From Deltaproteobacteria bacterium (lineage in GTDB: Bacteria > Desulfobacterota > Desulfobacteria > Desulfobacterales > B30-G6), in the NCBI GenBank assembly GCA_022340465.1, contig JAJDNW010000096.1, forward strand, positions 3,280 through 67,279: 64,000 nt of DNA. The letters are read 5' to 3'. Made by a program: the position numbers and the translations under genes. The notes below the pieces were generated by a model. It made no database searches and had not been told where the DNA came from. It worked only from the letters and a program-made list of their open reading frames with translations. Shown piece after piece: positions 2,218-47,854 of the stretch (its first letter is position 1; each line of letters starts with the position of its first letter).

Positions 2218-2339
2218 AGTGGTTGCCAGAAAAACGTTCCGATTGTGTTGCATCCAAAAAATGGCGCTGTCGATTTTATATCCACTGTAATAACAAAGCA
2301 TTATATACACTTTGCCATGTTGTTTGTGCAACCATGAGG

Positions 2340-3371
2340 TTAAGCGCCGATCCGCAAGACCTTGGCGCCCCGGATCTTGCGCTGCTTGAGTTCCAGCAGG
2401 GCGGTGTTGGCCTCATCCAGGGCGTACGCCTGGTATTCCGGTTTGATGGGGATGTCCGCGGCAATTTTCAGAAACGCCGACACGTCCCCGCGGGCCACGT
2501 TGGCCACGCTTTTGATCTCCTTCTCCATCCAGAGCTGCGCCGGATAGTCCAGCCCCATGAGCAGGTCATTGTCCCGGCTTTCCTTGCGGATGGCATTGAT
2601 GACCAGCCGGCCGCCCGGCTTGAGGCACTTCAGGGCCTCCAGCACCGGTTTCCAGACCGGAGTGGTATCGATGACCGCATCCAGAAGCGCCGGGGGCTTA
2701 TCGCCGATCTCCCCGGCCCAAACAGCGCCCAGTTCCAGGGCAAAGGCCCTTTCCCGGGCGCTGCGCGCAAACACATAAATCCGGGAGCGGACATAGCGAT
2801 GCTGCATCATTTTCAGCACCAGGTGCGCGGACGCCCCGAATCCCGTCAATCCCAGGTGCTGCCCGTCCTCGATGCCGGTCAACCGGAGGGAACGGTAGCC
2901 GATAGCCCCCGCGCATAAAAGCGGCGCGGCCTCTGCATCGGCCATGCCGGACGGAATGGCAAAGGCGAATTTTTCGGGCACGCGCATGTATTCCGCATAG
3001 CCGCCGTGGGCGTCACGGCCGGTGGCTTTGAATTCCGGACAAAGGTTTTCTCTGCCGCTGCAGCAGAATTCACAGTTGCCGCAGGCGGAAAAAATCCAGG
3101 CCACGCCGACCCGGTCGCCGTTGTTGAACCGCGTCGCGTTCGCCCCCCTGCCCACGACCCTGCCCACGGCCTGGTGTCCCAGCACCATCGGAAAAAACGC
3201 CGGGGGGGTGCGCCCCTCGATCTCGTCCAGCTCCGTGTGGCACACGCCGCAGGTGCTCACCGCGATGACGATATCCCCCTCCCCCGGCTGCGGGTCCGGC
3301 AGCGTCACCGCCTTGAGCGGCCGGGTTTCCTTTTCCAGGTCGCAGAGTCGCTCCAATACCATTGCTTGCAT
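2340..3371 (-). CDS. Zinc-dependent alcohol dehydrogenase (MDR superfamily)
   Basis: 343 aa. Catalytic Zn motif 'CGVCHTELDE...GHQAVGRV'. Structural Zn cluster 'CGNCEFCCSGRENLC'. Rossmann region 'GLTGFGASAHL'. Confidence 0.9.
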   Translation of the reverse strand: MQAMVLERLCDLEKETRPLKAVTLPDPQPGEGDIVIAVSTCGVCHTELDEIEGRTPPAFFPMVLGHQAVGRVVGRGANATRFNNGDRVGVAWIFSACGNCEFCCSGRENLCPEFKATGRDAHGGYAEYMRVPEKFAFAIPSGMADAEAAPLLCAGAIGYRSLRLTGIEDGQHLGLTGFGASAHLVLKMMQHRYVRSRIYVFARSARERAFALELGAVWAGEIGDKPPALLDAVIDTTPVWKPVLEALKCLKPGGRLVINAIRKESRDNDLLMGLDYPAQLWMEKEIKSVANVARGDVSAFLKIAADIPIKPEYQAYALDEANTALLELKQRKIRGAKVLRIGA

Positions 3372-3734
3372 ACGATCAATCCTCGCTGATGGTCATCTTC
3401 CTACCCAAGTTGCAACCCCCATGGGGTTTATCCCCCGCCAGTTGCGCGCATCCGGGTGCTCGATATTCTTTTTATTGATTCAGGGTTGCATAGCATACCA
3501 CATGACCCGTCACTTATGCAAAAATTACAGTACTGTTGGCGCGGAAAGCGTTTTGAACCTTGACAGCGGGAACAGCCTCATTGTATTTTTTGTTTACAGA
3601 TTTGCACCAACAATGGAGAAATTCGAGGTTTGATGATAAACATGCGGGCAGATCCTGATTCAATTTAAATTTTCATGGGTGGGTATGAAGCATCGGTGGC
3701 CGTTAAGATCAGTTGAACATGAAAATTTACAACT

Positions 3735-6700
3735 ATGAAATCACTCGGTATATGTCTCGGCGCTTCCTCGGTATCGATTGCCCGGCTTGAAACCGACGGC
3801 AGTGCACCCTCAACTTCCGGCAAGGCGAGAAAACAGCCTCCACGCATGATCGGCAACGCCGTCTACCCCCACGACGGCAACCCGAAAAGGACCCTCGTCG
3901 AGGCACTTGCAGGACTGGATGTAAACCGCTTCGACCGCATCGCCGTCACCGGCAGAAAATTCCGCAGCGTTCTCCGTCTATCGTCAATATCCGAACCCCG
4001 CGCCGTGGAATACGCCTACCGCTACACCCGCCCCCCCGGCGTGTCCTGCCCGGCCATCGTTTCCGCCGGCGGTGAAACCTTCATGGCCTACGTCCTGGAC
4101 AGTTCCGGACGCATCGCCAACGTCCTCACCGGCAACAAGTGTGCATCGGGAACGGGAGAATTTTTCCTGCAGCAAATCCGCCGCATGAACGTATCCCTGG
4201 ACGAAGCCGCCCGCTGGTCCTCGACGGAAAAGCCATACCATGTTTCCGGACGTTGCTCCGTTTTCTGCAAATCGGACTGCACGCACGCCACCAACAAAGG
4301 GGTTCCCAAGTCCCAGGTAACCGCCGGCCTCTGCAAAATGATGGCCGATAAAATTATCGAGCTGCTGAAAAGGGTGGATCGGCGCAACATCATGCTCACC
4401 GGCGGTACGACCAGGAACGGCATGATGGTGACTTACCTCAAACAGGCGATTCCCGGGCTGATTATCCCTAGCGAGGCACCGTACTTCGAAGCGCTGGGAG
4501 CCGCCTTGTGGGCCCTCCAAAACAGCACCCAACGTCCGGCCGACCAGGTCGCCGAGTGGTTTATCGACGGCGCGGCCGCTCCCGCTTGTCTGCCCCCGCT
4601 GAACGAAGCCGCCGATCAGGTCACCTTCAAAACCATAAAAAGCGGCCGCATCGTTCCCGGAAAGGATTGCATTCTGGGGCTGGACGTGGGCTCCACCACC
4701 ACCAAAGCGGTGCTCATGCAAAAGGACAGCAACGCACTGCTGGCCTCGGTCTACCTGCGCACCGACGGCGATCCCGTGGGGGCCTCACGAAAATGTTACA
4801 CCGCTATCCTGAAACAGGTAAAAGGCGTTGTCGACCCGGCCGAGCTTCCCATCGTGGGACTGGGGGTCTGCGGCTCCGGCCGCCAGATTGCCGGCCTGCA
4901 TGCGCTGACCGACGGCGTCATCAATGAAATCGTCGCCCACGCCGCGGCCGCCGTTTTTTTCGATCCGGAAGTCGACACCCTGTTCGAAATCGGCGGCCAG
5001 GATGCCAAATACACCTACATCACCAACGCCGTGCCATCCGATTACGCCATGAATGAAGCCTGCTCGGCGGGGACGGGATCCTTTCTCGAAGAATCCGCCC
5101 TGGAATCGCTGGGCGTCGCCATGGAAGATATCGCCGGCATCGCCCTTCAGGGGAGCAGGCCGCCAAATTTCAACGACCAGTGCGCGGCCTTCATTGCCTC
5201 CGACATTAAAAATGCCATCCACGAGGGCATCCCGCATGCCGACATCGTTGCCGGCCTGGTCTATTCCATCTGCATGAATTACAGCAACCGGGTCAAGGGA
5301 AACAGGACCGTGGGACGCAAGGTGTTCATGCAGGGCGGGGTTTGCTACAACCACGCCGTGCCGCTCGCCATGGCCACGCTTGTCGGCAAGCCCATTGTCG
5401 TCCCCCCGGAGCCCGGACTCATGGGCGCCTTCGGGGTGGCCCTCGAGGTGAGCAAACGACTGGACCTGGGGCTTATGGAGCGTAAAGCCTTCGACCTTGC
5501 CCAACTGGCGGCAAGAGACGTCCGGTACTGCCGCGAGTTCACCTGCAGGGGCGGCAAAGAAAAATGCGATCGAAAATGCACCATCACGATGATAGAGCTG
5601 GAAGGCAAGCGCTATCCCTTTGGCGGTGCCTGCAACCGGTACGACAACCTGCGCCGCCGCATCGAGCACGACACGGCAAAACTGGATCTGGTCCGGGTAC
5701 GCCAGGAACTCGTTTTCAATCTTGAAGGCACCCTGCCCCGCCGGCGTCAAGGCCAGGGATCCAGGGGGCGCATCGGGTTCAACCGCAGTTTCCTGGTCAA
5801 TTCCTATTACCCGCTGTACGCCGCCTTCTTTTCACGCATCGGCTATGAACCGGTACTTCCGGACGAGCCCTCGCAAACCGGAATCGAACAGCGCAATGCG
5901 GCCTTCTGCTACCCCGGTGAGCTGGCCCACGGCTTTTTTCACAGCCTGATCGGAATGGAACCGGCGCCGGACTACCTTTTTCTGCCCCATGCCAAATCCA
6001 TCCCCCTGGAAAACGGCACCCGCTCCTCGCAGGTATGCCCGCTTGTCCAGGGAGAAACCTTTTATCTTCAATCCACTTTTAGAGACAGGCTCAAAGAGCT
6101 TGAAAAAAAGGGCACCCGCGTGCTGGCACCGCTTCTCGATTTGAATGGCGGGTTCGAAAAAGCGCGCGCGCCTCTGCTGGAAACCGCCGGCCGCATGCAT
6201 GTCGACAGAAAAATCGCCCGGCGCGCCTTCGACACGGCCGTGGCGCAACAACAGCTGTGCGTTGATAAAATGCGGGCCGCCGGCCTGCAGGCCCTGGCCG
6301 ACCTCGAGGCCGACCCCGACCGGACCGGCGTGGTCATCTTCTCCAGGCCCTACAACGGTCTGGTGGCCGAAGCCAACATGGGGATTCCCGCAAAACTGGC
6401 CACACGCGGCATCACGGTGATTCCTCTGGATTTCCTGCCTTTTGAAAAGGAGGACGCCAAACGGCATATGTACTGGGGCATGGGTCAGATTATCCTCAGA
6501 GCGGCTCGCCTGGTCAAACGCCACCCCCAGCTGTTCGGGGTATTCATCACCAATTTTTCCTGCGGCCCCGACTCTTTCATCGTCGGGTATTTCAGGTCAA
6601 TCATGGGCCGCAAGCCCTCCCTGACGCTCGAACTGGACAGCCATACGGCCGACGCAGGACTGGATACACGCATCGAAGCCTTTCTCGACATCGTTTCCGC

Positions 6701-34921: not shown

Positions 34922-35118
34922 ATTTCAGCATAGCATCAACGCCCTGCGATTTGAAAGCTTGAAAAACCGGCGGGGAAGCATTAACGTAGTGCTATCGTTC
35001 GTTGCCAATAATATCCCGACGGCAAATCGGCGACCTCCGGTAGAGCCTTAAGGTATTGGGGAGGCATCTTGAAGTGGCCGCTCTGCCCTCGATTCCGATG
35101 CTTTTCTATGGGGTGCAC

Positions 35119-37017
35119 ATGAAAACCGAAGGTTACTGGGCCGACAATTACGTCGAAAAAAAATGCAATGCGGAACATGCCATTAAAAAGATAAAAGCGG
35201 GGCAGCGCGTGTTCATCGGCTCCTCGTGCGGCGAACCCCAACATCTGGTTCAGGCCCTGGGGGAAGCCTCCAACCGCTATACCGACATCGAAATCGTCCG
35301 CCTCCTGGCCCTTGAAAGCACCCCCCTGACACTGATTGCCAACAAGTCCAAAAGTCAGAACCTGACCATACGGTCCTTTTACCTGGGGTCGGCCAAGGCG
35401 GAGCGGTTGTCGAGAAACCAGCGCTTCATCACCCCCATCAACCTGTCGGCCATACCGCGTCTGTTCCGCAGCCGTTTCCTACCCATCAATGTGGCCCTGA
35501 TCCAGGTGACGCCGCCGGATGATTTCGGCTGGATGAGCCTGGGGGTATCGGTGGACATCACCCTGGCCGCAGCATTGTCGGCAGACATCGTCATCGCCCA
35601 GGTGAATACCAACATGCCGCGCGTGCTGGGCCAGAGCTTCGTCCACGTGAACGACGTGGACTACATCGTCGAGCACGACGAACCCCTGATCAGCATCGAC
35701 AAGCGTCCGGAAAATGAATCGGCCGAGGAGGTCGGCAGGCTGATCGCGCGGCTGATAGAGGACGGTTCCACGCTCCAGTTCAGCCCGGGAACGACTCCCC
35801 AGGCCACCCTTCTGGCGCTGGCCGACAAGAACGACCTGGGGGTGCACACGCACTACCTGACGGATGAAATCATGCACCTGGTTTCACGGGGCGTCATCAA
35901 CAACCGGAAAAAGGGATTCAACGACGGAAAACTAGTGGCCAGCACCGCCTTGGGGACAAAAAACCTGTTCGAGTTCATCGACAACAACCCCAGTATCGAA
36001 TTTCATCCGTCGGACTACGTCAATGACCCCTCCGTCATCAGCCGCCACAACAAAATGGTGTCATTCAGCGTGGGCATGGCCATGGACCTTACCGGCCAGG
36101 TGGCCGCCGATGCCTTGCCCCACAACAATTTTTCGGGTGTCACCGGCATGCTGGACTTCATCAGGGGCGCCTCGCAGTCCCCGGGCGGCAAATCCTTTAT
36201 TCTAATGACCGCCACGGCCATGCAGGGGAAAAAAAGCCGCATCGTGCCCATGCTTGACCACACCGCCGTGGTGGTTCCCCGTGGGGACGTGCATTACGTA
36301 GCCACCGAATTCGGCGTTGTGAACCTCTTCGGCAAAAGCCTTCAGGAAAGGGCCACGGCCATGATCAGCATCGCCCATCCGGATTTTCGCGATGAATTGT
36401 TCCACGAAGCCAAGCAGCAGGGCCTCTTCGGGGCCGAACGGACCCTGGCGGAATCCATATCCGGTATATACCCGCGCCACCTGGAGGAGAATATCCTCAT
36501 CGACAACCAGACCGTAACCGTCCGACCGTCCAAGCCTGTGGACGAACGCCGCATTCAGGAACACTTTTATACCCTCGAGAAAAACGATATCGTGGCCCGG
36601 TTTTTTCACGAAAAAACCGCATTTGTTCACGACGAGGTAGGCAAGGTTTCCCAGGTGGATTACGTCAAGGATCTGACCATCGTGGCCGTCGTCGGGGAAT
36701 TCGGCTTCGGCAAGGTCATCGGTGTGGGGGAATACCTGCTGGACCCTTCCAATAATATGGCCGAGGTGGCCTTTTCCGTGTCCAAGGAATTCAAACGCAA
36801 GGGCCTGGGGAAAATCCTGATGAAAAAACTCTGCCAGGCGGCCCGGGAAAAAGGCATTTCCGGCCTGTTTGCCTACACCTCCCACGAAAACAAGGGAATG
36901 ATCAATCTTTTCAAGACGCTGCCCTACAAAGTCAAAAAAATATTCGAAGAGGACATGATTCTTTTGAAATGCAGCTTCGATGAACCGTTAACCAGCGACA
37001 ATGATCAAGCGAGGTAA
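35119..37017 (+). CDS. Acetyl-CoA hydrolase/CoA-transferase-family domain fused to a C-terminal Pat-type GNAT acetyltransferase domain
   Basis: N-terminal ~480 aa: 'KAGQRVFIGSSCGEPQHLVQAL', 'LQFSPGTTPQATL' and 'GVTGMLDFIRGA' fit the 4-hydroxybutyrate/acetate CoA-transferase fold. C-terminal ~150 aa: 'AEVAFSVSKEFKRKGLGKILMKKLCQAAREKGISGLFAYTSHENKGMINLFKTL' resembles the GNAT of protein acetyltransferase Pat. Confidence 0.8.
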   Translation: MKTEGYWADNYVEKKCNAEHAIKKIKAGQRVFIGSSCGEPQHLVQALGEASNRYTDIEIVRLLALESTPLTLIANKSKSQNLTIRSFYLGSAKAERLSRNQRFITPINLSAIPRLFRSRFLPINVALIQVTPPDDFGWMSLGVSVDITLAAALSADIVIAQVNTNMPRVLGQSFVHVNDVDYIVEHDEPLISIDKRPENESAEEVGRLIARLIEDGSTLQFSPGTTPQATLLALADKNDLGVHTHYLTDEIMHLVSRGVINNRKKGFNDGKLVASTALGTKNLFEFIDNNPSIEFHPSDYVNDPSVISRHNKMVSFSVGMAMDLTGQVAADALPHNNFSGVTGMLDFIRGASQSPGGKSFILMTATAMQGKKSRIVPMLDHTAVVVPRGDVHYVATEFGVVNLFGKSLQERATAMISIAHPDFRDELFHEAKQQGLFGAERTLAESISGIYPRHLEENILIDNQTVTVRPSKPVDERRIQEHFYTLEKNDIVARFFHEKTAFVHDEVGKVSQVDYVKDLTIVAVVGEFGFGKVIGVGEYLLDPSNNMAEVAFSVSKEFKRKGLGKILMKKLCQAAREKGISGLFAYTSHENKGMINLFKTLPYKVKKIFEEDMILLKCSFDEPLTSDNDQAR

Positions 37018-37024
37018 TTTAGAA

Positions 37025-39004
37025 ATGACAAGCTACACCGTCCGTTTCCTTCCCCACGATAAAACCGTCCAGATCCCCGAGGGGGAAATCCTTATTCGTG
37101 CAGCCATAGAAGCCGGCGTGCATGTCAATGCCTCCTGCGGTGGCGAAGGGGTATGCGGAAAATGCCGCGTGATTGTAGAAAAGGGGGAAGTGGAAGGCGG
37201 TCTCAGTGAACGGCTCAGCGATGACGACCGCCGTAAGGGGTACCGGCTCGCCTGCCAGAGCCGTGTCATGCAGGATATCACCGTACGTATTCCGGTCGAG
37301 TCCACGGTGGATGCCAGCGTATTGAACACCCGCAGCACCCCCAGGCAGACCGCCCGCATCCGGCAAATGGATCTCGACGACCTCAAGGAAAAGGGCCTTT
37401 TCCTGGCACCGGTGGAAAAGAAATATCTCGAACTTCCCGAGCCTACGGCGGACGACCACCTGCCGGACGTCACCCGGCTGGTCAGTTTTCTGAAGCTGAA
37501 GCACGATGAACGCCGCATCAAGGTCAGCCTGCCCGTCATTCGCAAGATGCCTGATTTGTTGCGAAAGGATAATTTCAAAATTACAGCCACCCTGGAACGG
37601 CCTGTTCGTGAAATCGGCAAGACCGACATCATCAATGTGCAGCCGGGCGACACCAGCGACCGCAACTACGCCATTGCCGTGGACATCGGTACTACCACCG
37701 TCTACGGCCAGCTCATCGACCTCGTAACCGGCGATGTTCTGGCTGAAAACGGGGACTTCAACGCCCAGATCAGCTATGGGGAAGACGTGATCAGCAGGAT
37801 TGTCTACGCTGAAAAAGAGGGCGGGCTCGAAAAACTGCACCAAATCGTGGTGGGCACGATCAACACAATTATCGGCAAACTTTTTAAAAAGTCGGGTGTG
37901 GACAGGGACGACATCTCAGCCATCACCCTGGCCGGCAACACCACCATGACACAGCTTCTGCTGAAAGTGAACCCGCGCTACATCAGGCGTTCCCCCTATG
38001 TTCCGGCGGCCACCCTCTACCCTCCGGTAAAGGCCGTCGACCTGGGCATCGAATTGAACGACCATGTGTCCGCCCTGGTTTATCCAGCGGTTTCCAGCTA
38101 CGTGGGCGGTGACATCGTTGCCGGCGTCATGGGATCGGGCATGTATCTCACGGATAAGCTGACCCTGTTTATGGACATCGGCACCAATGCGGAGATCGTC
38201 GTGGGAAACCGGGAATGGTTTGCCTGCGCAGCCTGTTCCGCGGGGCCGGCATTCGAGGGCGGCGGCATCGAATTCGGCATGCGGGCCTCCAAGGGGGCCA
38301 TAGAAGATTTTTCCATAGATCCGGATACGCTGGAGCCCATGAACATCTGTATTGGCAATGTCCGACCCAAAGGCATATGCGGCTCGGGCCTCATCATCAT
38401 GGTGGCCACCTTCTTCGAAATGGGAATTATTAACAATCTCGGAAAGTTCGATCGCGATCTGGAAACGCCGCGCATCCGTGAAAAAGACGGTGTATACGAA
38501 TATGTCCTGGCATGGAAGAATGAAACCCAGATCGACAGGGACATCGTGCTGACGGAAATCGACATCGAGAACCTGATTCGCGCCAAGGGAGCGATTTACA
38601 GCGGCTGCCTGACCCTCCTGGAGGAGGTCGGTCTTTCGGTTAAGGATCTGGAGCACATCATTCTGGCGGGAGGATTCGGCAGCTACATCGATCTGGAACG
38701 CGCCATGGTGATCGGCCTGCTCCCGGAGATCGACCCCGCAAAAATCACCTATATCGGCAATGGGTCACTGATGGGGGCGAAAATGAGCTCCCTCAGCAAC
38801 CACATTCGCCGCAATGTCGTCGAAGTGACCAAAAACATGACGAATTTCGAGTTGTCTGAAACCGTGTCCTACATGGACAATTACATCGCCGCCCTCTTCC
38901 TGCCCCATACGGACATGGAACAGTTCCCCAAATTGAAGGCACGGATGAAAAAAAATATAAAATTAACAGCCGGTTATAAATCAAAACCGACATCCCTCCC
39001 TTAA
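37025..39004 (+). CDS. acsV: Reductive activator of the corrinoid Fe-S protein (RACo/AcsV; 2Fe-2S ferredoxin + ASKHA ATPase/DUF4445)
   Basis: N-terminal plant-type 2Fe-2S motif 'CGGEGVCGKCRV...ACQ'. ASKHA phosphate loops 'AVDIGTTTV' and 'MDIGTNAE'. 'CSAGPAFEGGGI'. Begins 8 bp after the upstream stop. Confidence 0.85.
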   Translation: MTSYTVRFLPHDKTVQIPEGEILIRAAIEAGVHVNASCGGEGVCGKCRVIVEKGEVEGGLSERLSDDDRRKGYRLACQSRVMQDITVRIPVESTVDASVLNTRSTPRQTARIRQMDLDDLKEKGLFLAPVEKKYLELPEPTADDHLPDVTRLVSFLKLKHDERRIKVSLPVIRKMPDLLRKDNFKITATLERPVREIGKTDIINVQPGDTSDRNYAIAVDIGTTTVYGQLIDLVTGDVLAENGDFNAQISYGEDVISRIVYAEKEGGLEKLHQIVVGTINTIIGKLFKKSGVDRDDISAITLAGNTTMTQLLLKVNPRYIRRSPYVPAATLYPPVKAVDLGIELNDHVSALVYPAVSSYVGGDIVAGVMGSGMYLTDKLTLFMDIGTNAEIVVGNREWFACAACSAGPAFEGGGIEFGMRASKGAIEDFSIDPDTLEPMNICIGNVRPKGICGSGLIIMVATFFEMGIINNLGKFDRDLETPRIREKDGVYEYVLAWKNETQIDRDIVLTEIDIENLIRAKGAIYSGCLTLLEEVGLSVKDLEHIILAGGFGSYIDLERAMVIGLLPEIDPAKITYIGNGSLMGAKMSSLSNHIRRNVVEVTKNMTNFELSETVSYMDNYIAALFLPHTDMEQFPKLKARMKKNIKLTAGYKSKPTSLP

Positions 39005-39390
39005 CGTTGATCCGTTTTTTGAGGCGTCAACCTGCAGGCGTTGGAAGGCAGCCGTTATCTATTGACAAAGCCGCATCCCTAATATAGATAATCATATTTG
39101 TAGTAATTTGCTGTAAATTGCGTTTGTTGGAATCAATTTAGTCGGAATTGGCAGTATGAAAGCGGTGGTGAAACACGATGCCGCCGGAGAGCAATTGAAC
39201 AAGGTTTCCAGGCCGATCAGGCCGGAACTTTGCGAACGTTTAATTTCCGAATGCCAAAAAAATTGAAAAAAAATAATCACTAGGAAAGGGGGGTGTAGAC
39301 TTAGAGTAATTGCTAAAAAATGTCAGTAAAATCAGTTCAACATCGCAAGACCTCAATCATTAACCGGTATTTTGATAAGGAGGTATAAAA

Positions 39391-40974
39391 TTGGGTTTCG
39401 AATTCACTAAAGAATCTTATACCGGCGCCGTAAAAGAAATCACACTAGGTGAGGGCGCCAAGGCTGTTACCGTTGGGGGAGAGACCTGCTACCCGTTCTA
39501 CCAGTTTGAAGGTGACATGCCCCACAAACCGAAAATTGCCATGGAAGTGTGGGATATGGAGCCTGAGGAATGGGCGCCGGCAGCACTTGAACCATTCAAG
39601 GATGTCGTGTCGGATCCGGCCGCCTGGGCAAAAAAATGTGTGGACGACTTCGGTGCCGAACTCATCGTTCTGCAGCTCAAGAGCATCGATCCCAACGGGG
39701 ATGACGCCAGCCCCGCGGATGCGGCCGCCAGGGTCAAGGCCGTGGCCGAAGCCATCGATGTCCCCCTGATCGTCTGGGGTTGTGCCAACCCCCAGAAAGA
39801 TGAAGACGTGCTCAAAGCGGTTGCCGAAGCCTGCCAGGACTTCAATCTGGCCATCGGCCCGGTGGAAGACACCAATCACAAGGGGATCGGAGCGGCTGCC
39901 ATGGGCTACGGCCACATCGTGATCTCTTCCTCACCCATCGACGTCAACATCGCCAAACAGGTCAATATTCTGCTCGAGAACCTGGGCATGCCCATGGACC
40001 GGGTGATCATCGATCCCACCACCGGCGGATTGGGTTACGGACTCGAATATTCCTATTCGGTCATGGAACGGTTGCGCATGGCCGCCATGGCCCAGGGGGA
40101 CGACAAGCTGCAATTCCCCATCATCAACAACCTGGCCAATGAGGTCTGGAAGTGCAAGGAGGCCAAACAGGGTGTCGACGAAGCGCCTGAACTGGGAGAC
40201 CCCGAAAGACGCGGGATTCTCATGGAAGCCGTGGGCGCCGTCTCCTATCTGATGGCGGGCACCGACATCATGATCATGCGCCATCCGGAAGCCATCCGCA
40301 TGGTCAAGGCCTTTATCGACCTGGTAGTCGATGGCGGCAGTGCCGCCGACGTCACCCCCGTCGCCAAGGCCCTGGACGATGTAGAGATCGACTTTGCCGC
40401 CATCTCCCCGAAACCGGATCTTACCATCGAAGAGGAAAAAGAGGCCAAGACCGCTCCGGCCAAGAAGGCCGAGGCCAAACCCAAGGCCGAGAAGAAAGCG
40501 CCGGCCCCAAAAGCCGCTCCCAAGCAGGAGGCTCCCGAAAAGGCTGAAGCTAAAAAAGCCGAGCCGAAAATAGAGGAAGCCCCCGCGGTAGACGAAAAAG
40601 CCGATGCAGAAGCCAAGGCCAAAGCCGAGGCCGACGCCAAGGCCAAGGCCGAAGCCGATGCCAAAGCCAAGGCCGAGGCCGAGGCCAAGGCCAAGGCCGA
40701 TGCCGAAGCCAAGGCCAAGGCTGATGCCGAAGCCAAGGCCAAGGCCGAGGCCGATGCCAAGGCCAAAGCCGACGCCGACGCCAAAGCGGCCCGCGAGGCC
40801 GAGGAAGATTCCCTCCGTCAAAAACGCGCCGCCGAACGCGAGGCGCTGGAATCCAAACGGGAAAAAGGGGAAGCCAAGGTGGTTTCCCTCACCGCTGCAG
40901 CCGCCCAGAAGGATCAAAATGAAAAGATTCTGGAAAAACTCAACTGGGTACACCGTCGGGTGAAGCTGTATTAA
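39391..40974 (+). CDS. acsD: Corrinoid Fe-S protein small subunit (AcsD/CdhD) with a ~190 aa low-complexity C-terminal extension
   Basis: TTG start 5 nt after AAGGAGG. The first ~330 aa is a TIM-barrel AcsD-like domain ('[14 protein letters not shown]', '[24 protein letters not shown]'). It is followed by an Ala/Lys/Glu/Pro-rich tail. Confidence 0.85.
40600..40788 (+). repeat. In-frame tandem repeat, 24-nt period (about 8 copies), encoding (A-E/D-A-D/E-A-K-A-K)n within acsD
   Basis: 'gccgaggccgacgccaaggccaag'-type units read directly from the sequence. The protein reads '[63 protein letters not shown]'. Confidence 0.9.
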
Positions 40975-41037
40975 CGCGCGGCCGTCAAACATTAACGCCA
41001 ACGTTTTAAAATTAATCAATATGAGGAGGAACCTCTA

Positions 41038-43056
41038 ATGGCAGTAGAAAAAAAGGAAAAAGCCCCGAAATTAGCAGATCCGGTAGCGGCGTCCATCGAT
41101 GTCGCCAGCCAGGAAATGATTGCTCGCGCCCAGGAACTGGGTGTGGAAACCGTTTTCGACCGGGCCGTCAAAATGAAGCCCTGCAACATCGGCATCCAGG
41201 GAATCTGCTGCAAAAATTGCGCCATGGGCCCCTGCCGCCTGCCGCTCCCCAAGGGTGGCATCCAGGGCGAGGATGACCGCAAGGGCCTCTGCGGCGCCAC
41301 CGCCAACACGATCGCGGCGCGAAACTTCATCCGTATGATCGCCGGCGGTGCTTCGGCCCATTCCGACCACGGCCGCAGCGTCGCGCACGTATTCATGTCG
41401 GCCGCCAGGAAAGAGACCGACGCCTACAAGATCAAGGACACCAACAAGCTGCTGCAGATCGCTCCCTATCTGAACGTAGCCACCACCGTGGAGGTGGACG
41501 GCGAGACCAGGGACCGCGACATCGACGAAATCGCTCTCGAGGTAGCCGAAGTGGCTCTCAAAGAGTGGGGCAAGCCCGAAGGCGAACTGCTGTACGCCAA
41601 AAGAGCACCCGCGGCCCTGTACGAAAAATGGAAAAAAACCGGTGTCGTCCCCCGCAATATCGACCGTGAAATCGTCGAAATCATGCACCGGACCCACATG
41701 GGCGTGGACCAGGACTACAAGAACCTGATGAAGCAGGGCACCCGCGCGGCCATCGCCGACGGCTGGGGCGGCTCCATGCTGGCGACCGATCTCCAGGACG
41801 TCTTGTTCGGAACCCCCTACCCCCTGCAGTCCGAATCCAACCTGGGTGTCATGAAAGAAGACCATGTCAACCTCGTGGTCCACGGCCATGAACCGGTTCT
41901 GTCGGAAATGATCGTGGCGGTATCCCAGAAACCCGAAATCGTCGAATACGCCAAGTCCAAAGGCGCCAAAGGCATCCAGCTCAGCGGTATCTGTTGCACG
42001 GCCAACGAGATCCTGCAGCGCCACGGCGTTCCCCCCGCAGGCACCTACCTGCAGCAGGAACTGGCCATCGTCACCGGCGCCTGCGATGCCATGGTGGTGG
42101 ACATCCAGTGCATCTTTCAGAACCTGGCCAACGTGGCCAAGTGCTTCCACACCAAGCTGATCACCACCCACCCCATCGCCAAGATGGAGCAGGACAATGT
42201 GATTCATATCGAGTTCGACGAGCACTACGCCCTGGAAGATGCGGAGAAGATTATACGCATGGCCATCGACAACTTCGAGAACAGGGGCGCGGAGGTCATG
42301 ATTCCAAGGCACAAAACCACGCAGGTAGCCGGTTTTGGCGTGGAATCGATTCAGTATCACCTGGGCGGCACGTTCCGAGGCGACTACTACACGCTCAACG
42401 ACAACATCATCAACGGCCGTATCCGCGGCATTGCCGGCGTGGTCGGCTGCAACAATGCCCGGGCCCGGCACAATGAAGCCCACATAACCGTGGTCAAGGA
42501 GCTCATCAAAAACGATGTGATCGTGCTCACCACCGGATGCAACGGCATCGCCTGCGGCATGGCAGGGCTGCTGACACCGGAATCCGCGGCGGTCTACTGC
42601 GGACCGGGCCTGGCGGAAGTGTGTGAAACCGTCGGTATTCCACCGGTTCTCAGCCTGGGATCCTGCGTCGACAACAGCCGTATCCTGCTGGCGGCCACCG
42701 AAGTGGTCAAGGCCGGCGGATTGGGCAACGACATTTGTGACCTGCCGGCGGCGGGCAGCGCCCCGGAATGGATGAGCGAGAAGGCCATCAGCATCGGTCA
42801 CTATTTTGTCGCCTCCGGCGTCTACACCGTTTTCGGGCTGCATCTACCCACGTCCGGGGCACCGGTTTTTCATGATTACATCTCCAAAGAAATGGAAAAG
42901 CTCTATGGAGGCAAATGGGATCTGGAAGCCGATCCGATCAAGCATGCACAACTGATGATCGCCCATATCGACAAAAAACGGAAAGAACTGGGCATTGACA
43001 AGGCCAGAGAGAGGGTCCTCATGGACATGGCGGACCGCCAGGCCCTCGAGGCTTAA
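41038..43056 (+). CDS. acsA: Anaerobic Ni-Fe carbon-monoxide dehydrogenase catalytic subunit
   Basis: 672 aa. D/B-cluster motif 'CNIGIQGICCKNCAMGPCRL', plus 'HGHEP' and 'GCNNAR' C-cluster regions. Confidence 0.95.
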   Translation: MAVEKKEKAPKLADPVAASIDVASQEMIARAQELGVETVFDRAVKMKPCNIGIQGICCKNCAMGPCRLPLPKGGIQGEDDRKGLCGATANTIAARNFIRMIAGGASAHSDHGRSVAHVFMSAARKETDAYKIKDTNKLLQIAPYLNVATTVEVDGETRDRDIDEIALEVAEVALKEWGKPEGELLYAKRAPAALYEKWKKTGVVPRNIDREIVEIMHRTHMGVDQDYKNLMKQGTRAAIADGWGGSMLATDLQDVLFGTPYPLQSESNLGVMKEDHVNLVVHGHEPVLSEMIVAVSQKPEIVEYAKSKGAKGIQLSGICCTANEILQRHGVPPAGTYLQQELAIVTGACDAMVVDIQCIFQNLANVAKCFHTKLITTHPIAKMEQDNVIHIEFDEHYALEDAEKIIRMAIDNFENRGAEVMIPRHKTTQVAGFGVESIQYHLGGTFRGDYYTLNDNIINGRIRGIAGVVGCNNARARHNEAHITVVKELIKNDVIVLTTGCNGIACGMAGLLTPESAAVYCGPGLAEVCETVGIPPVLSLGSCVDNSRILLAATEVVKAGGLGNDICDLPAAGSAPEWMSEKAISIGHYFVASGVYTVFGLHLPTSGAPVFHDYISKEMEKLYGGKWDLEADPIKHAQLMIAHIDKKRKELGIDKARERVLMDMADRQALEA

Positions 43057-43126: not shown

Positions 43127-45340
43127 ATGTCTAAGTTAGTCGCATTTGCCGCCATACAGGGTGGCTACAAAGTCGTATCAGCCGCCGAAGGCGCTTTCCA
43201 CAATGCCCTGGAGTCTTACAATGCAGACACCAAGATCGAGTTCCCCAATACCGGTTACTATCTCCCGGTGATCTACTCCCTCACGGGCATGAAGGTGGAA
43301 AAACTGGAAGACCTGAAAAAACCACTGGATTTTGCACGCGGCCTGTTGCCGCCGCACGTCAAGGGCAAAAACCATCTGCCCTATCTGGGGCCCCTGCTGG
43401 ACGCCGGTATGGCCGCCATCTTTGCCTATGAAATCATCGAAGCCATCCGCATCATGAAAGACCCCGACTTCTACCTGCCGGGGGAGGATCCCGACATCGA
43501 AGCCGGCAAAATCTGGCTGGGGCCGGCGGACGACGTCATCCTCAGAAAGAGGGGCGTCGAGTTCGTGGACGGCAGCGCCCCCGGTTTTGCCGCCGTCGTC
43601 GGCGCCTGCCCGGATCCGGAAACCGCCAAGATGATCGTGGAGGACTACCAGAAGAAAAACCTCTACATCTTCTGTGCCGCCAACCACAACGGAACGTCGG
43701 TCATTCAGCAGCTGCTGGAAGCCGGTGTCCAGGTGGGCTGGAGCACCCGCATCGTGCCCTTCGGCCCGGATATCTCCTCGGCGGTGTTCGCCCTCGGGTT
43801 CGCCAACCGCGCCGCCATGGCCTTCGGCGGCATTCAGCCGGGCGACTACAAGAAAATTCTGCATTACAACAAGGACCGCGTATTCGCCTTTGTCAATGCC
43901 TTCGGCGACATCGGCACCGAATGGGGCGTCGCCGCGGCCGGTTGCGTCAACTGGGGCTTCCCAACGCTGGCCGACACCGACATCCCGGAAATCCTGCCCA
44001 CGGGTATCTGTACCTACGAGCACGTGGTGGCCAACGTTCCCCACGATGAAATCTGCCAGAGATCCGTTGAAGTTAGGGGCCTCAAGGTCACGGTCTCCGA
44101 AATCGACATCCCGATGTCATTCGGCCCGGCCTTCGAAGGTGAGCGTGTCCGCGGCGCCGACCTGCACTGTCAGATGGGCGGCGGCAAGACCCAGGCCACG
44201 GAGCTGGTCAAGATGGCCGACATGAAAGAGATCGAAGACGGCAAGGTCGTGATCGAGGGACCCGACGTCAGCGATCTGAAAGAAGGCGAGACCCTGCCTC
44301 TCGGGATCTTCATTCAGGTGGCCGGCCGTGAAATGCAGGTCGATTTCGAGCCTATCCTGGAGCGTCAGATCCACCATCTGATCAACTACATCCAGGGCAT
44401 CATGCACATCGGCCAGCGCGACATCGCCTGGATTCGCGTGAGCAAGGCCGCCATGGAAAAGGAGTTCTCCCTCAAGCACATCGGCGTGGTCCTGCATGCC
44501 AAATTCCACCAGGAGTTCGGCAAAATCCTGGACAAGGTCCAGGTGACCCTCTACACCGACAAGAAAAAGGTGGATGAGCTGACCAAGACCGCCCGCGCCG
44601 AATACAAGACCCGTGACGAACGCGTCGAGAACATGACCGACGAGGATGTGGAAACCTATTACTCCTGCACCCTCTGCCAGTCCTTTGCGCCCACCCACGT
44701 GTGTACGGTCAGCCCGGAAAGAACCGGCCTGTGCGGCGCCTACAACTGGATGGACTGCAAGGCCTCCTTTGAAATCAACCCCACCGGCCCCAACCAACCC
44801 ATCGAAAAAGGTGAGGTCCTCGACCCGGTGCTGGGGCAGTTTAAGGGCGTCAACGAGTTCGTTAAAAGTGCCTCCCGCGGGGCCATCGATCACTACAATT
44901 TCTACTCGATGGTAATTGACCCCATGACCACCTGCGGCTGCTGCGAGTGCATTGCAGCCATGCTGCCGTCCTGCAACGGCGTCATGACTGTCAACCGGGA
45001 CTACACCGGGGAAACCCCCTGCGGCATGAAGTTCACCACACTGGCCGGGGTGATGGGCGGCGGGGCTTCTTCGCCGGGCTTCGTGGGCCACTCCAAATTC
45101 AACATCACCCAGCGTAAGTTCATCAAGGGTGACGGCGGCCTGCTGCGCATGGTTTGGATGCCCAAAATGCTCAAGGAAGAAATCAAAGAGCGCATCGACA
45201 AGATGGCCGCAGAGCTGGGTGAACCGGACCTGTACGACAAGATCGCCGATGAAACCGTGGGTATCACCGAAGAAGAGATATTGCCGTGGCTCGAAGAAAA
45301 GGGCCACCCGGCACTCTCCATGGATCCTCTGATCGGCTAA
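43127..45340 (+). CDS. acsB: Acetyl-CoA synthase (A-cluster subunit of CODH/ACS)
   Basis: 737 aa. 'CTLCQSFAPTHVCTVSPERTGLCG' ([4Fe-4S] of the A-cluster) and 'TTCGCCECI' (Cys-Gly-Cys Ni site). Confidence 0.95.
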   Translation: MSKLVAFAAIQGGYKVVSAAEGAFHNALESYNADTKIEFPNTGYYLPVIYSLTGMKVEKLEDLKKPLDFARGLLPPHVKGKNHLPYLGPLLDAGMAAIFAYEIIEAIRIMKDPDFYLPGEDPDIEAGKIWLGPADDVILRKRGVEFVDGSAPGFAAVVGACPDPETAKMIVEDYQKKNLYIFCAANHNGTSVIQQLLEAGVQVGWSTRIVPFGPDISSAVFALGFANRAAMAFGGIQPGDYKKILHYNKDRVFAFVNAFGDIGTEWGVAAAGCVNWGFPTLADTDIPEILPTGICTYEHVVANVPHDEICQRSVEVRGLKVTVSEIDIPMSFGPAFEGERVRGADLHCQMGGGKTQATELVKMADMKEIEDGKVVIEGPDVSDLKEGETLPLGIFIQVAGREMQVDFEPILERQIHHLINYIQGIMHIGQRDIAWIRVSKAAMEKEFSLKHIGVVLHAKFHQEFGKILDKVQVTLYTDKKKVDELTKTARAEYKTRDERVENMTDEDVETYYSCTLCQSFAPTHVCTVSPERTGLCGAYNWMDCKASFEINPTGPNQPIEKGEVLDPVLGQFKGVNEFVKSASRGAIDHYNFYSMVIDPMTTCGCCECIAAMLPSCNGVMTVNRDYTGETPCGMKFTTLAGVMGGGASSPGFVGHSKFNITQRKFIKGDGGLLRMVWMPKMLKEEIKERIDKMAAELGEPDLYDKIADETVGITEEEILPWLEEKGHPALSMDPLIG

Positions 45341-45472: not shown

Positions 45473-46813
45473 ATGGCATTAACCGGTATTCAAATTTTCA
45501 AACTCCTGCCAAAAACCAACTGCAAGGAATGCGGTGTGCCCACGTGCCTTGCTTTTGCCATGAACCTGGCTTCGGGCAAGGCGGAGCTGGACAGTTGTCC
45601 GTACGTTTCGGACGAGGCCAAGGAGCAACTGGCCGAAGCCTCGGCACCGCCGATTCGTCCGGTAAAAATCGGTAAAGGCGTCAGAGCCTTTACCACCGGC
45701 GGTGAGACCGTTCAGTACCGTCATGAAAAAACCTTTTTCAACCCAACCGCCCTGGCGGCCATGGTCGCATCTGACATTGCGGACGCCGACCTGGAAGCCA
45801 AACTCAATGTCTGGAACGCCTTCCAGTTTGAACGGGTCGGCCTCAACTTGAGGCCCGAACTCGTCGCCCTGAAAGACGCCAACGGCGATGCCGGCGCCTT
45901 CGCGGCCAAAGCCAAAACCATCGCGGAAACATCCGAATTCAACCTGGTGCTGATGTCCGACAGCCTCGATGCCATGAAGGCCGCCGTCGAAGCCGCCGGG
46001 TTCAAGCGCCCCCTGATCTATGCCGCCACCGAGGCCAATGTCGATGATTTCGGCGCCCTGGCCAAGGATAACGATCTGCCGCTGGCGGTCAAAGCCGATT
46101 CGGTCGAAGCTCTGGTGCCATTGACGGAAAAACTGACGGAAATGGGCCTCAAGGATCTGGTGCTCGACCCCGGTTCCCGCGATGTCAAGCAGGCCCTGGA
46201 AGACCAGATCGCCATCCGGCGGGCCTCCCTCAAAAACGGCAACCGCGCCGTGGGATTCCCGACCATCACCTTCCCGTGCGAAATGGCGTCCAATCTGGAG
46301 ATGGAAACCCTTCTGGCTGGCATGTTCATCGCCAAATACGGCGGCATAGTGGCCCTGTCCGATTTCACGGGGGAAAGTCTGTTCCCGCTACTGCTTGAAC
46401 GCCTGAACATCTTCACCGACCCGCAGCGGCCCATGACCGTCACCGAAGGCATTTACGAAATCAACAACCCGGACGAAAACTCGCCCGTCCTGGTCACCAC
46501 CAACTTCGCCCTGACGTACTTCATCGTCAGCGGCGAAATCGAAGGCAGCCGCGTTCCGGCTTACCTGTTGATCAAGGACGCCGAGGGTCTTTCCGTCATG
46601 ACCGCCTGGGCGGCCGGTAAATTCGCCGGTGACGACGTGGGCATGTTCGTCAAGAAAAGCGGCATCATGGACAAGGTCAAGCATACCGAGCTTGTCATCC
46701 CCGGTTATGCAGCGGCCATCGCCGGCGATGTCGAGGAAGAGCTTCCCGGCTGGACTATTACCGTCGGTCCCAGGGAGGCGGCGCATATTTCGGGATTTCT
46801 GAAATCCAAATAA
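45473..46813 (+). CDS. acsC: Corrinoid Fe-S protein large subunit
   Basis: 446 aa. N-terminal [4Fe-4S] motif 'CKECGVPTCLAFAMNLASGKAELDSCPYV', followed by TIM-barrel and Rossmann-like B12 domains. Confidence 0.92.
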   Translation: MALTGIQIFKLLPKTNCKECGVPTCLAFAMNLASGKAELDSCPYVSDEAKEQLAEASAPPIRPVKIGKGVRAFTTGGETVQYRHEKTFFNPTALAAMVASDIADADLEAKLNVWNAFQFERVGLNLRPELVALKDANGDAGAFAAKAKTIAETSEFNLVLMSDSLDAMKAAVEAAGFKRPLIYAATEANVDDFGALAKDNDLPLAVKADSVEALVPLTEKLTEMGLKDLVLDPGSRDVKQALEDQIAIRRASLKNGNRAVGFPTITFPCEMASNLEMETLLAGMFIAKYGGIVALSDFTGESLFPLLLERLNIFTDPQRPMTVTEGIYEINNPDENSPVLVTTNFALTYFIVSGEIEGSRVPAYLLIKDAEGLSVMTAWAAGKFAGDDVGMFVKKSGIMDKVKHTELVIPGYAAAIAGDVEEELPGWTITVGPREAAHISGFLKSK

Positions 46814-46972: not shown

Positions 46973-47854
46973 ATGTTACTCATCGGCGAAAGTTTAAACG
47001 TAATTTCCAAGAAGATCGGCCGCGCATTCAAGGAACGCGACCCCAAGCCGATCCAGGAGGAAGCCCTTTTTCAAAAGGAAAAAGGCATGGACTACATCGA
47101 CATCAATCTCGGGCCGGCCAAGAAAGACGGCCCCGAACTGATGCCCTGGGTGGTGGAAACCGTTCAGGAAGTCGTGGATGATGTCCCGCTGGTCCTGGAC
47201 ACCTCCAACATCGATGCCATCGCAGCGGCACTCAAGGTTTGCAAGCTGCCGCCCATCATCAACTCCATCATGGTCCGGCCCGAGCGCTATGAAAAAATGG
47301 TGCCTCTGACGGCGGAACACGGTGCAGATTTCATCGCCCTGATGTGGGGGCCCGACGGCCTGCCGCGTGATGAAAACGAACGCGCCGCCCTGTGTGTGGA
47401 ACTGCTCTATTTTGCCAACGAGGCCGGTATTCCCAATGAAAAGATCTGGGTTGACGGTATTGTCACCCCGGTCAACATCCAGCAGCCCCAGGCCATCAGC
47501 CTGATGGAGTTCCAGGGAATGATCCAGGACATCGCCCCGGGCGCCAGGAGTACCTGCGGCCTCTCCAACATCTCCAACGGTCCTCCGGACCATCTGCGGC
47601 CCATCCTCAATCAGACCTACATGGTTATGCTGCAGAAATACGGTATGGAGTCGGTCATCGCCGATCCCAGGGACGACCAGCTCATCGACATCGCCAAGGG
47701 CAATCGTCAGGACATCGTCGACCTGATTTACGGTATTATGGACGGTGAAGCCCCCGACATTGACAGCCTTTCCAAGGAACTGCAGGACTATGCCAAGACC
47801 ACCAACGTCATCCTCGGCAAAACCCTCTACTCCGATTCATGGCTGGAGATCTAA
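46973..47854 (+). CDS. acsE: Methyltetrahydrofolate:corrinoid Fe-S protein methyltransferase (pterin-binding domain)
   Basis: 293 aa. 'MLLIGESLNVISKKIG', 'YIDINLGP', 'LVLDTSN' and 'GLSNISNG' match MeTr/DHPS-like pterin-binding barrels. Confidence 0.9.
   Translation: MLLIGESLNVISKKIGRAFKERDPKPIQEEALFQKEKGMDYIDINLGPAKKDGPELMPWVVETVQEVVDDVPLVLDTSNIDAIAAALKVCKLPPIINSIMVRPERYEKMVPLTAEHGADFIALMWGPDGLPRDENERAALCVELLYFANEAGIPNEKIWVDGIVTPVNIQQPQAISLMEFQGMIQDIAPGARSTCGLSNISNGPPDHLRPILNQTYMVMLQKYGMESVIADPRDDQLIDIAKGNRQDIVDLIYGIMDGEAPDIDSLSKELQDYAKTTNVILGKTLYSDSWLEI

Follow-up and report, generated by a model that had tools for sequence, protein, structure and literature searches.

Results

The acsD gene and its extended product

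The window analysed here is a 64,000-nucleotide stretch of contig JAJDNW010000096.1, from the genome of a bacterium of the order Desulfobacterales, and all positions below count from its first letter. It contains an operon for the carbon monoxide dehydrogenase/acetyl-CoA synthase (CODH/ACS) system, in which the gene acsD (cdhD) encodes the small subunit of the corrinoid iron-sulfur protein (CoFeSP). The product carries, beyond the TIM barrel, a C-terminal tail of about 215 amino acids (aa), which is the subject of this report. We divided the tail into parts by composition, conservation and an AlphaFold2 (AF2) model built on 46 homologues, and judged AF2 models by the per-residue confidence score (pLDDT). 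The gene and the parts of its product are as follows.

39377..39383, + strand: Shine-Dalgarno sequence AAGGAGG, 7 nt 5' of the acsD TTG start, read from the sequence
39391..40974, + strand: acsD/cdhD coding sequence, CoFeSP small subunit, 527 aa plus TAA stop; open reading frame (ORF) list, TTG start
39391..40326, + strand: TIM-barrel core, residues 1-312; phmmer against PDB, collinear with solved bacterial AcsD chains
40327..40434, + strand: neck, residues 313-348, first part of the extension; conserved in close relatives
40435..40599, + strand: Pro/Ala/Lys/Glu-rich linker, residues 349-403; composition and AF2
40600..40857, + strand: single long helix resembling a single alpha-helix (SAH), residues 404-489; AF2 and charge pattern
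40600..40784, + strand: 24-nt tandem repeat, 7.7 copies, 88% matches, consensus GCCGAGGCCGAAGCCAAGGCCAAG; Tandem Repeats Finder
40858..40887, + strand: short flexible break, residues 490-499, separating the long helix from the terminal module
40888..40971, + strand: terminal module, residues 500-527 (L500 to Y527); end alignment and AF2

Profile searches identified the protein: PF03599 (CdhD) matches residues 16-302 (E=1e-47, 163 bits against a cut-off of 24.8), and NF003377, the PRK04452.1-3 CdhD subfamily, matches with 659 bits against a cut-off of 527. The N-terminus, MGFEF..., agrees with the homologue consensus and with position 1 of the NCBIfam profile. The NCBIfam AcsD/CdhD models span residues 1-310, and the 432-position profile of NF003377 matches residues 1-432, running about 100 positions into the tail. 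The solved AcsD chains of Moorella (4DJD_D, 323 aa) and Carboxydothermus (2H9A_B, 310 aa; 4C1N_B, 309 aa) and the chain 9FZY_E (314 aa) all stop opposite residues 309-312 of our protein in phmmer searches of PDB, and the extension therefore comprises about 215 residues (313-527, nucleotides 40327-40971).

A preliminary description, made from the letters of the stretch alone, had put the end of bacterial AcsD proteins near 320 aa, in agreement with the 309-323 aa of the characterised chains. The extension that it put at about 190 aa is real and somewhat longer than stated, and the three segments that it quoted are all present (residues about 356-393, the AEADAKAK octads, and residues 468-493). 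It had counted about eight repeat units at 40600-40788; the repeat is there, with the slightly smaller copy number and extent given above.

Parts of the tail

The neck holds nine positions that are invariant in the 46 homologues (G315, G316, K326, L328, D334, P340, P342, D343 and L344); its ratio of nonsynonymous to synonymous substitution (dN/dS) is 0.12-0.25, and its AF2 confidence is low. The linker that follows (8 Pro, 16 Ala, 14 Lys and 12 Glu in residues 349-403) is predicted to be disordered, with a pLDDT of 32-41 and no secondary structure over residues 354-403.

The next part is predicted by AF2 as one continuous helix of 86 residues, about 12.9 nm long, with a pLDDT of 60-81 and disorder on both sides. 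Its start coincides exactly with the start of the DNA repeat; the first two thirds consist of AEADAKAK octads, and the remainder is rich in Glu, Arg and Lys. In the octad each acidic residue is paired with a Lys four positions off, and the score for opposite charges at i and i+4 is 0.38 per residue over residues 409-464, compared with about 0 in the barrel. The helix has no hydrophobic seam: its 86 residues include just two hydrophobic ones, L475 and L486, and its hydrophobic moment is 0.02. Residues 404-489 thus carry the predicted signature of a single alpha-helix, not of a coiled coil, from which a monomeric state may be inferred. The likeness to single alpha-helices that the preliminary description had noticed in the composition is in keeping with the model and with both of these scores.

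Over residues 490-508 the AF2 model shows low confidence (pLDDT below 50) and no helix, and conservation of the break is low. The terminal module consists of an extended T-A-A-x-x-Q piece and an amphipathic helix predicted at residues 509-523, ending in H-R-R, after which four residues remain. Taken as a whole, the tail is a near-neutral polyampholyte, with a net charge of -2 and 45% charged residues. Searched alone against Pfam at E<=10, it matched no family, the only hit being a chance match to DUF7916 (E=0.13).

Several long ORFs overlap the tail, at 39931-41019 (- strand), 40245-40784 (- strand) and 40604-40963 (+ strand). We rejected the ORFs that overlap the repeat as genes; they are by-products of its GC-rich 24-nt periodicity, with translations of the poly Gly/Leu/Phe, Ala/Ser/Leu and Pro/Arg/Lys kinds.

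The terminal peptide

The most informative part of the tail is its nearly invariant C-terminal peptide, which the preliminary description had passed over. Aligning 88 unique tails on their ends gave the consensus M-T-[PA]-A-x-x-Q-[KL]-[ST]-x-h-[ED]-K-h-L-x-x-L-[ND]-[RW]-[IV]-H-[KR]-R, followed by 0-4 residues. Among these tails the Q is conserved in 97%, the R in 95%, the A in 90%, the K in 86%, the H in 82%, the T in 76% and the L in 74%. Tails of a sister group (class 2) have the terminal peptide ...YILRQLERWRLRGEGVLRK and end in ...GPDGVYILRQLERWRLRGEGVLRK, and a small sub-lineage that includes Desulfonema magnum keeps MTAAK-Q-KS and ends in KFKKIRR. The near-invariant polar residues and the extended piece look more like a docking peptide than like a generic lipid-binding or self-zipping helix.

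The module appears to be confined to this subunit. A word-indexed search with it returned 32 proteins, all of them CdhD, and an exhaustive profile search against 1.84 billion representatives returned 92 matches. No second family carrying the module was found in these searches, the 16 of the 92 matches that were inspected being fragments of AcsD tails, full AcsD proteins or assembly chimeras.

Distribution, length and selection

The tail is not peculiar to this genome; within the Thermodesulfobacteriota, one large clade of AcsD proteins has it as a rule. The best 120 database homologues are all 472-533 aa long and all tailed. Among 401 genomes of the phylum that were searched, 270 have an AcsD; about 50 of these, in at least 15 families, have such a tail, and most of the other AcsD proteins in the 270 genomes are forms of 315-340 aa. 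A scan of GTDB species genomes, with the whole-protein alignment as query, gave 80 named loci. The named carriers include Desulfosarcina species, Desulfonema magnum 4be13, Desulfoluna limicola ASN36, Desulfotignum, Desulfobacter and Desulfamplus, and further carriers are a Desulfococcaceae bacterium and the Olavius symbionts Delta 1 and Delta 3. In a maximum-likelihood tree of 100 AcsD barrels, 40 of 41 class-1 tails and all nine class-2 tails fall in one clade (96 in the Shimodaira-Hasegawa-like approximate likelihood-ratio test), which also includes one short and one truncated form. The simplest history consistent with this tree would be that the tail arose once and was then kept.

Three observations on AcsD proteins with other ends stand beside this distribution. 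Inside the tailed clade, the AcsD of a Desulfobacteraceae metagenome-assembled genome (L010/L165, on a contig of 5.7 Mb) has an extension of only 132 aa, in which the neck and part of the linker are kept and are followed by an unrelated end, ...AVEAAAKALGIDLAALLKKRGCTKDDIIHTSKQHNVELDVVLKKLNS; its genome (G206) contains a second AcsD match. In a different AcsD clade, L061, L062, L064 and P0190 have another, globular-looking C-terminal extension that ends in ...DLRYWYSEGYGSERRKKPA, and in P0190 (688 aa) the ...DLRYWYSEGYGSERRKKPA-type module is duplicated. Two genomes of the same order as that of the window (G078 and G342; loci L091 and L092) have short AcsD proteins of 320-344 aa that are 57-59% identical and lie outside the tailed clade, which points to more than one CODH/ACS lineage within the order.

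Counted from the RHPE motif onward, the tails of 118 close homologues measure 226 +/- 5.3 aa. Across at least 15 families, in 48 genomes whose barrels are only about 55% identical, the figure is 224 +/- 10.6 aa. Among complete tails from named Desulfobacterales genomes, 72 of 76 measure 210-249 aa. The unit of the helix is AEAKAKAD here and EEARRKAE in L012 and L032. That the length is held while the repeat unit changes indicates that selection acts on the physics of the tail rather than on its sequence. Compared with eight orthologues at a synonymous divergence (dS) near 1, every segment of the tail has a dN/dS of 0.07-0.25, indicating purifying selection on the translated tail. The repeat tract itself differs from its orthologues by about 0.8-1.5 at synonymous sites, and the repeat is therefore old and not a recent expansion. 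An identical repeat tract occurs in two other database entries on different contigs (P0002 and P0003), and the terminal peptide is kept in frame 3' of the repeat in more than 100 orthologues.

The preliminary description had proposed the repeat as a likely site of length polymorphism, which the narrow spread of total tail lengths, among close homologues as well as across families, does not bear out. It had also named two findings that would speak against its reading. An early stop or an assembly artefact in the repeat does not apply, the ORF being intact and the terminal motif in frame in the orthologues just mentioned. The other finding, that such tails are ubiquitous and already described, applies in part, in that the tail is the norm of a clade; a published description of it was not found in the literature searches reported below.

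AcsD fused to other enzymes of the pathway

In other lineages AcsD is joined covalently to pathway partners. Single ORFs of 1100-1144 aa contain an AcsD barrel and a full CODH (L004, at 972-4391 on the + strand, L005, L006, L065 and L066), connected by a Pro/Ala-rich linker of 140-215 aa. A search limited to long AcsD-containing proteins gave dozens of such fusions (PF03599+PF03063), among them P0163 of Desulfomonile tiedjei (1099 aa), which are annotated merely as 'anaerobic carbon-monoxide dehydrogenase catalytic subunit'. The CODH fusions occupy at least three separate places on the barrel tree, indicating that the C-terminus of AcsD has repeatedly been tied to the N-terminus of CODH by a linker about as long as the tail.

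A second type, MetF-linker-AcsD (PF02219+PF03599), is represented by many proteins of about 810-915 aa (P0196-P0245). Its carriers include the cable bacteria Ca. Electronema (P0207 from Ca. Electronema aureum) and Electrothrix, Thermodesulfatator indicus (P0227), Thermosulfurimonas dismutans (P0244) and a Thermodesulfobacterium. Two proteins of 1070 aa (P0208 and P0210) are MetF-AcsD fusions with added N-terminal TPR repeats.

Operon setting

Profile searches showed a complete bacterial-type acs operon around acsD, including a RACo-type activase, with the following genes besides acsD.

35056-37017: Pat-like CoA-transferase/GNAT
37001-39004: AcsV/RACo
41038..43056, + strand: acsA/cooS, CODH catalytic subunit (TIGR01702, 608 bits), starting 63 nt 3' of acsD
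43127-45340: AcsB
45473-46813: AcsC
46973-47854: AcsE

The acsD gene ends in a stop codon, and the separate acsA gene downstream has its own Shine-Dalgarno sequence. A genome search found one AcsD in the 4.39-Mb genome. The AcsE protein (293 aa) has about 30 residues more than the methyltransferase profiles, its residues 1-291 corresponding to profile positions 1-255 of 268.

Discussion

A proposed tether for the corrinoid protein

CoFeSP must visit the methyltransferase, the acetyl-CoA synthase and the reactivase in turn. Starting from the architecture of the tail, its conservation, its constrained length, the purifying selection on it and the existence of the fusions, we lean, by a modest measure, towards the view that the tail is a tether with a docking terminal peptide, which holds CoFeSP near the CODH/ACS machinery. 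We infer a monomeric helix, the docking of the tail's end and the partner that receives it. The terminal peptide would bind some folded component of the acetyl-CoA machinery, for which the CODH/ACS encoded directly downstream is the most plausible candidate, and the linker and the stiff helix would form a leash of fixed reach. Standard polymer dimensions, with 86 x 0.15 nm for the helix and a contour length of up to about 19 nm for the 55 residues of the linker, would give a reach of about 15-30 nm. Such a leash could keep the methyl-carrying CoFeSP locally concentrated while it shuttles among the AcsE methyltransferase, the AcsB acetyl-CoA synthase and the AcsV reactivase. The tail would then do without a covalent bond what the AcsD-linker-CODH and MetF-linker-AcsD fusions do with one, and would be a convergent bacterial counterpart of the disordered N-terminal scaffold of archaeal CdhD. 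The preliminary description had considered a tether to a partner or to the membrane, or a spacer; the role of tether or spacer has become the best-supported reading, on account of the held length, the SAH-like helix, the terminal peptide and the fusions with equally long linkers, and the membrane part is not supported.

A wider proposal, which we make tentatively and consider less likely than not, is that the CODH/ACS of the dominant marine acetate-oxidising sulfate reducers is a tethered supercomplex, unlike the loose CODH/ACS and free CoFeSP of acetogens. In relatives of Desulfosarcina, Desulfococcus and Desulfonema, and in further Thermodesulfobacteriota, the AcsD peptide, held on a helical ruler of about 13 nm, might plug CoFeSP onto the complex or into a hub of several CoFeSP units, in convergence with the archaeal scaffold of acetyl-CoA decarbonylase/synthase (ACDS). 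On the same tentative footing, the AcsD-CODH and MetF-AcsD fusions might be alternative, hard-wired versions of this principle.

Several points weigh against the tether with a docking peptide. The conservation of tail length could stem in part from shared ancestry. The long helix, with about 49% Ala and 51% charged residues, has a lower charge content than classical E/R/K single alpha-helices, and AF2 gives the terminal helix a confidence of only about 44-62. The fusions nest among short AcsD proteins, outside the tailed clade. Profile comparison by hhalign showed no significant similarity of the terminal module to helices within the linkers of the fusions (probabilities below 5%), and the fusions therefore back tethering in principle and not the binding of this particular peptide to CODH. 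In an AF2 model of a D. tiedjei-type fusion (1099 aa, 43-row alignment), the linker (residues 314-440), including a helix at 398-414, has a pLDDT below 50 and gives no sign of docking. CODH/ACS is a candidate for the docking partner.

The terminal helices might instead associate with one another, so that CoFeSP units radiate from an oligomerisation hub on stiff helical spokes, like the hexa- to octameric CoFeSP scaffold built by the N-terminal helix of archaeal CdhD. We regard this as unlikely, though it has some appeal: a 4-3-4-3 hydrophobic seam (I513, L517, V520, V524 and Y527) runs along the terminal helix, whose hydrophobic moment is 0.41, the archaeal CdhD terminus offers the precedent of a 14-residue helix within a disordered region, and two types of fusion keep an internal helix despite their covalent CODH, which hints at a role other than CODH binding. 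The strongest conservation, however, is that of the polar residues Q506, H521, R522/R523 and K512 and of the extended T-P-A-x-x-Q piece upstream, a pattern more typical of peptide docking; the Desulfonema magnum sub-lineage swaps the helix for KFKKIRR while keeping the extended piece; and the helices of the fusion linkers have no detectable homology to the terminal module. We find it improbable that the tail lacks a specific partner and serves as a polyampholyte entropic bristle, a solubility or spacing element or a tolerated stretch of low complexity, whose end is conserved for stability or turnover. Its low complexity, near-neutral composition and lack of a Pfam match would suit such an element, as would the low AF2 confidence outside the helix. 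A tolerated sequence would hardly be expected to have a length tightly constrained across so many families, a dN/dS as low as that found in every segment and a specific terminal motif, or to belong to a subunit that independent lineages have repeatedly tethered covalently to pathway partners.

More improbable again is a membrane leash, in which the basic amphipathic C-terminal helix would bind the cytoplasmic membrane in the manner of MinD or FtsA and a TolA-like stalk would hold CoFeSP near membrane redox complexes. The helix does lie at the extreme C-terminus, it is amphipathic and basic (end segment net +4, hydrophobic moment 0.41-0.59), and the tail has a weak match to TolA domain II (TIGR02794, 37.9 bits). 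Yet that score is under the cut-off of 59.45, the protein has no transmembrane segment, the mean hydrophobicity of the terminal helix is -0.29, many orthologues have few bulky hydrophobic residues there, and near-invariant polar residues are unexpected in a generic lipid-binding helix. The proteogenomic papers on Desulfobacteraceae that we read report neither the tail nor a membrane location of CODH/ACS. Finally, a mis-assembly, frameshift or read-through in the repeat, with translation truly stopping near residue 320, has in our judgement a next to negligible chance of being the explanation. The repeat is hard for short-read assembly, the orthologues L119, L158 and L170 are frame-broken in the tail, and databases contain chimeras of unrelated N-termini and AcsD-tail fragments; against these stand the lack of an in-frame stop, the terminal motif in frame past the repeat in more than 100 genomes (those of Desulfonema magnum and Desulfoluna limicola among them, both complete), the identical repeat tract on other contigs, and the purifying selection on the tail. 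In many chimeric entries (among P0248-P0327), small heat-shock protein, exonuclease III, NadA-like, DivIVA-like and other N-termini are joined to AcsD-tail fragments inside the A/E/K repeat, and in P0192 the tail continues into a Gp5/VgrG-like repeat.

Novelty and significance

Full-text literature searches, whose coverage included a 2026 study of Wood-Ljungdahl evolution in the Desulfobacterota and the proteogenomic papers on Desulfobacteraceae, found no published description of a C-terminal AcsD tail, of the terminal motif or of AcsD-CODH fusions. Databases label the tailed proteins just as 'acetyl-CoA decarbonylase/synthase complex subunit delta'. What is known is the AcsD subunit, with a profile (NF003377) that reaches into the tail; what is new is an undescribed, clade-wide accessory element, which we read as a tether.

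To our knowledge, the efficiency of the bacterial CoFeSP shuttle is understood only for the enzymes of acetogens, whose AcsD has no tail. If the tether is real, a conserved leash with a specific docking peptide would imply that, in the clade responsible for oxidising much of the acetate of marine sediments, one of the oldest enzyme systems for fixing and cleaving carbon is organised differently at the supramolecular level. This would parallel the scaffold that has recently been proposed for ACDS in archaea. The terminal peptide of about 28 residues offers a handle for fishing out the partner, and the helix, as a single-helix ruler of natural bacterial origin, might serve as a linker in protein engineering. 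The tail is also a trap for assemblers and gene callers, giving frameshifts and chimeric ORFs, and its Lys-rich sequence will be nearly undetectable by tryptic proteomics.

Comparison with known systems

The closest characterised relatives are the AcsD proteins of acetogens and carboxydotrophs (Moorella thermoacetica, Carboxydothermus hydrogenoformans, 9FZY_E). They have the same TIM barrel (E 5e-86 to 4e-72, collinear over residues 1-312) and the same partners, AcsA, AcsB, AcsC, AcsE and AcsV, but end right after the barrel, so that the tail has no counterpart in any solved structure.

The likeness to TolA domain II that the preliminary description had noted is one of composition: both are long helical stalks rich in Ala, Lys and Glu, and the weak match (37.9 bits) covers residues 347-509. 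We rejected membership of TIGR02794, as the score is below its cut-off, only the low-complexity stalk aligns, and there is neither an N-terminal anchor nor a domain III. The N-terminus of AcsD is instead the barrel, and its setting is cytoplasmic and enzymatic. Compared with helices of the MinD/FtsA type, the terminal helix, with its hydrophobic moment of 0.41-0.59, its negative mean hydrophobicity and its near-invariant polar residues, seems a poor fit to a generic lipid-binding helix.

Designed (EAAAK)n linkers are related helical spacers. The long helix has a closer natural parallel in the SAH (ER/K) spacers of myosin VI/X, INCENP and the KER region of CAF-1 (PMC4183817, PMC5347031, PMC4571873, PMC10335832). 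Like these, it is predicted to be long and continuous, with acid-base pairs at i and i+4 and no hydrophobic seam, to connect a folded domain with a putative binding element, and to have length as the apparently selected property. It differs in its high Ala and modest charge content, in a period of 8 (AEADAKAK) instead of 7, in being bacterial and in being known from prediction.

The covalent fusions share with the tailed protein the same barrel, joined to a pathway partner by a Pro/Ala/Lys-rich linker of 140-240 aa, and the linker of the CODH fusions (about 200 aa) is about as long as the tail. They differ in being covalent, in lacking the octad helix and the terminal motif, and in belonging to other AcsD clades.

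A 2026 bioRxiv preprint (10.64898/2026.07.07.736967) reports that, in archaea, an N-terminal disordered region of CdhD with a short coiled-coil helix scaffolds the ACDS supercomplex, and states that such a region is missing from bacterial AcsD. Our AcsD indeed has no N-terminal extension: it aligns from residue 1, and the archaeal models NF003375 and TIGR00381 align from profile positions 64-109 onward. The archaeal element lies at the N-terminus, is about 100 aa long and lacks a long stiff helix, whereas the tail described here is C-terminal, about 215 aa long and has a 13-nm helix, and the two have no sequence similarity. They nevertheless share the subunit, a terminal disordered region with a short amphipathic helix, and a proposed role in tethering CODH, ACS and CoFeSP. 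The terminal helix predicted at residues 509-523 shows a heptad-like seam.

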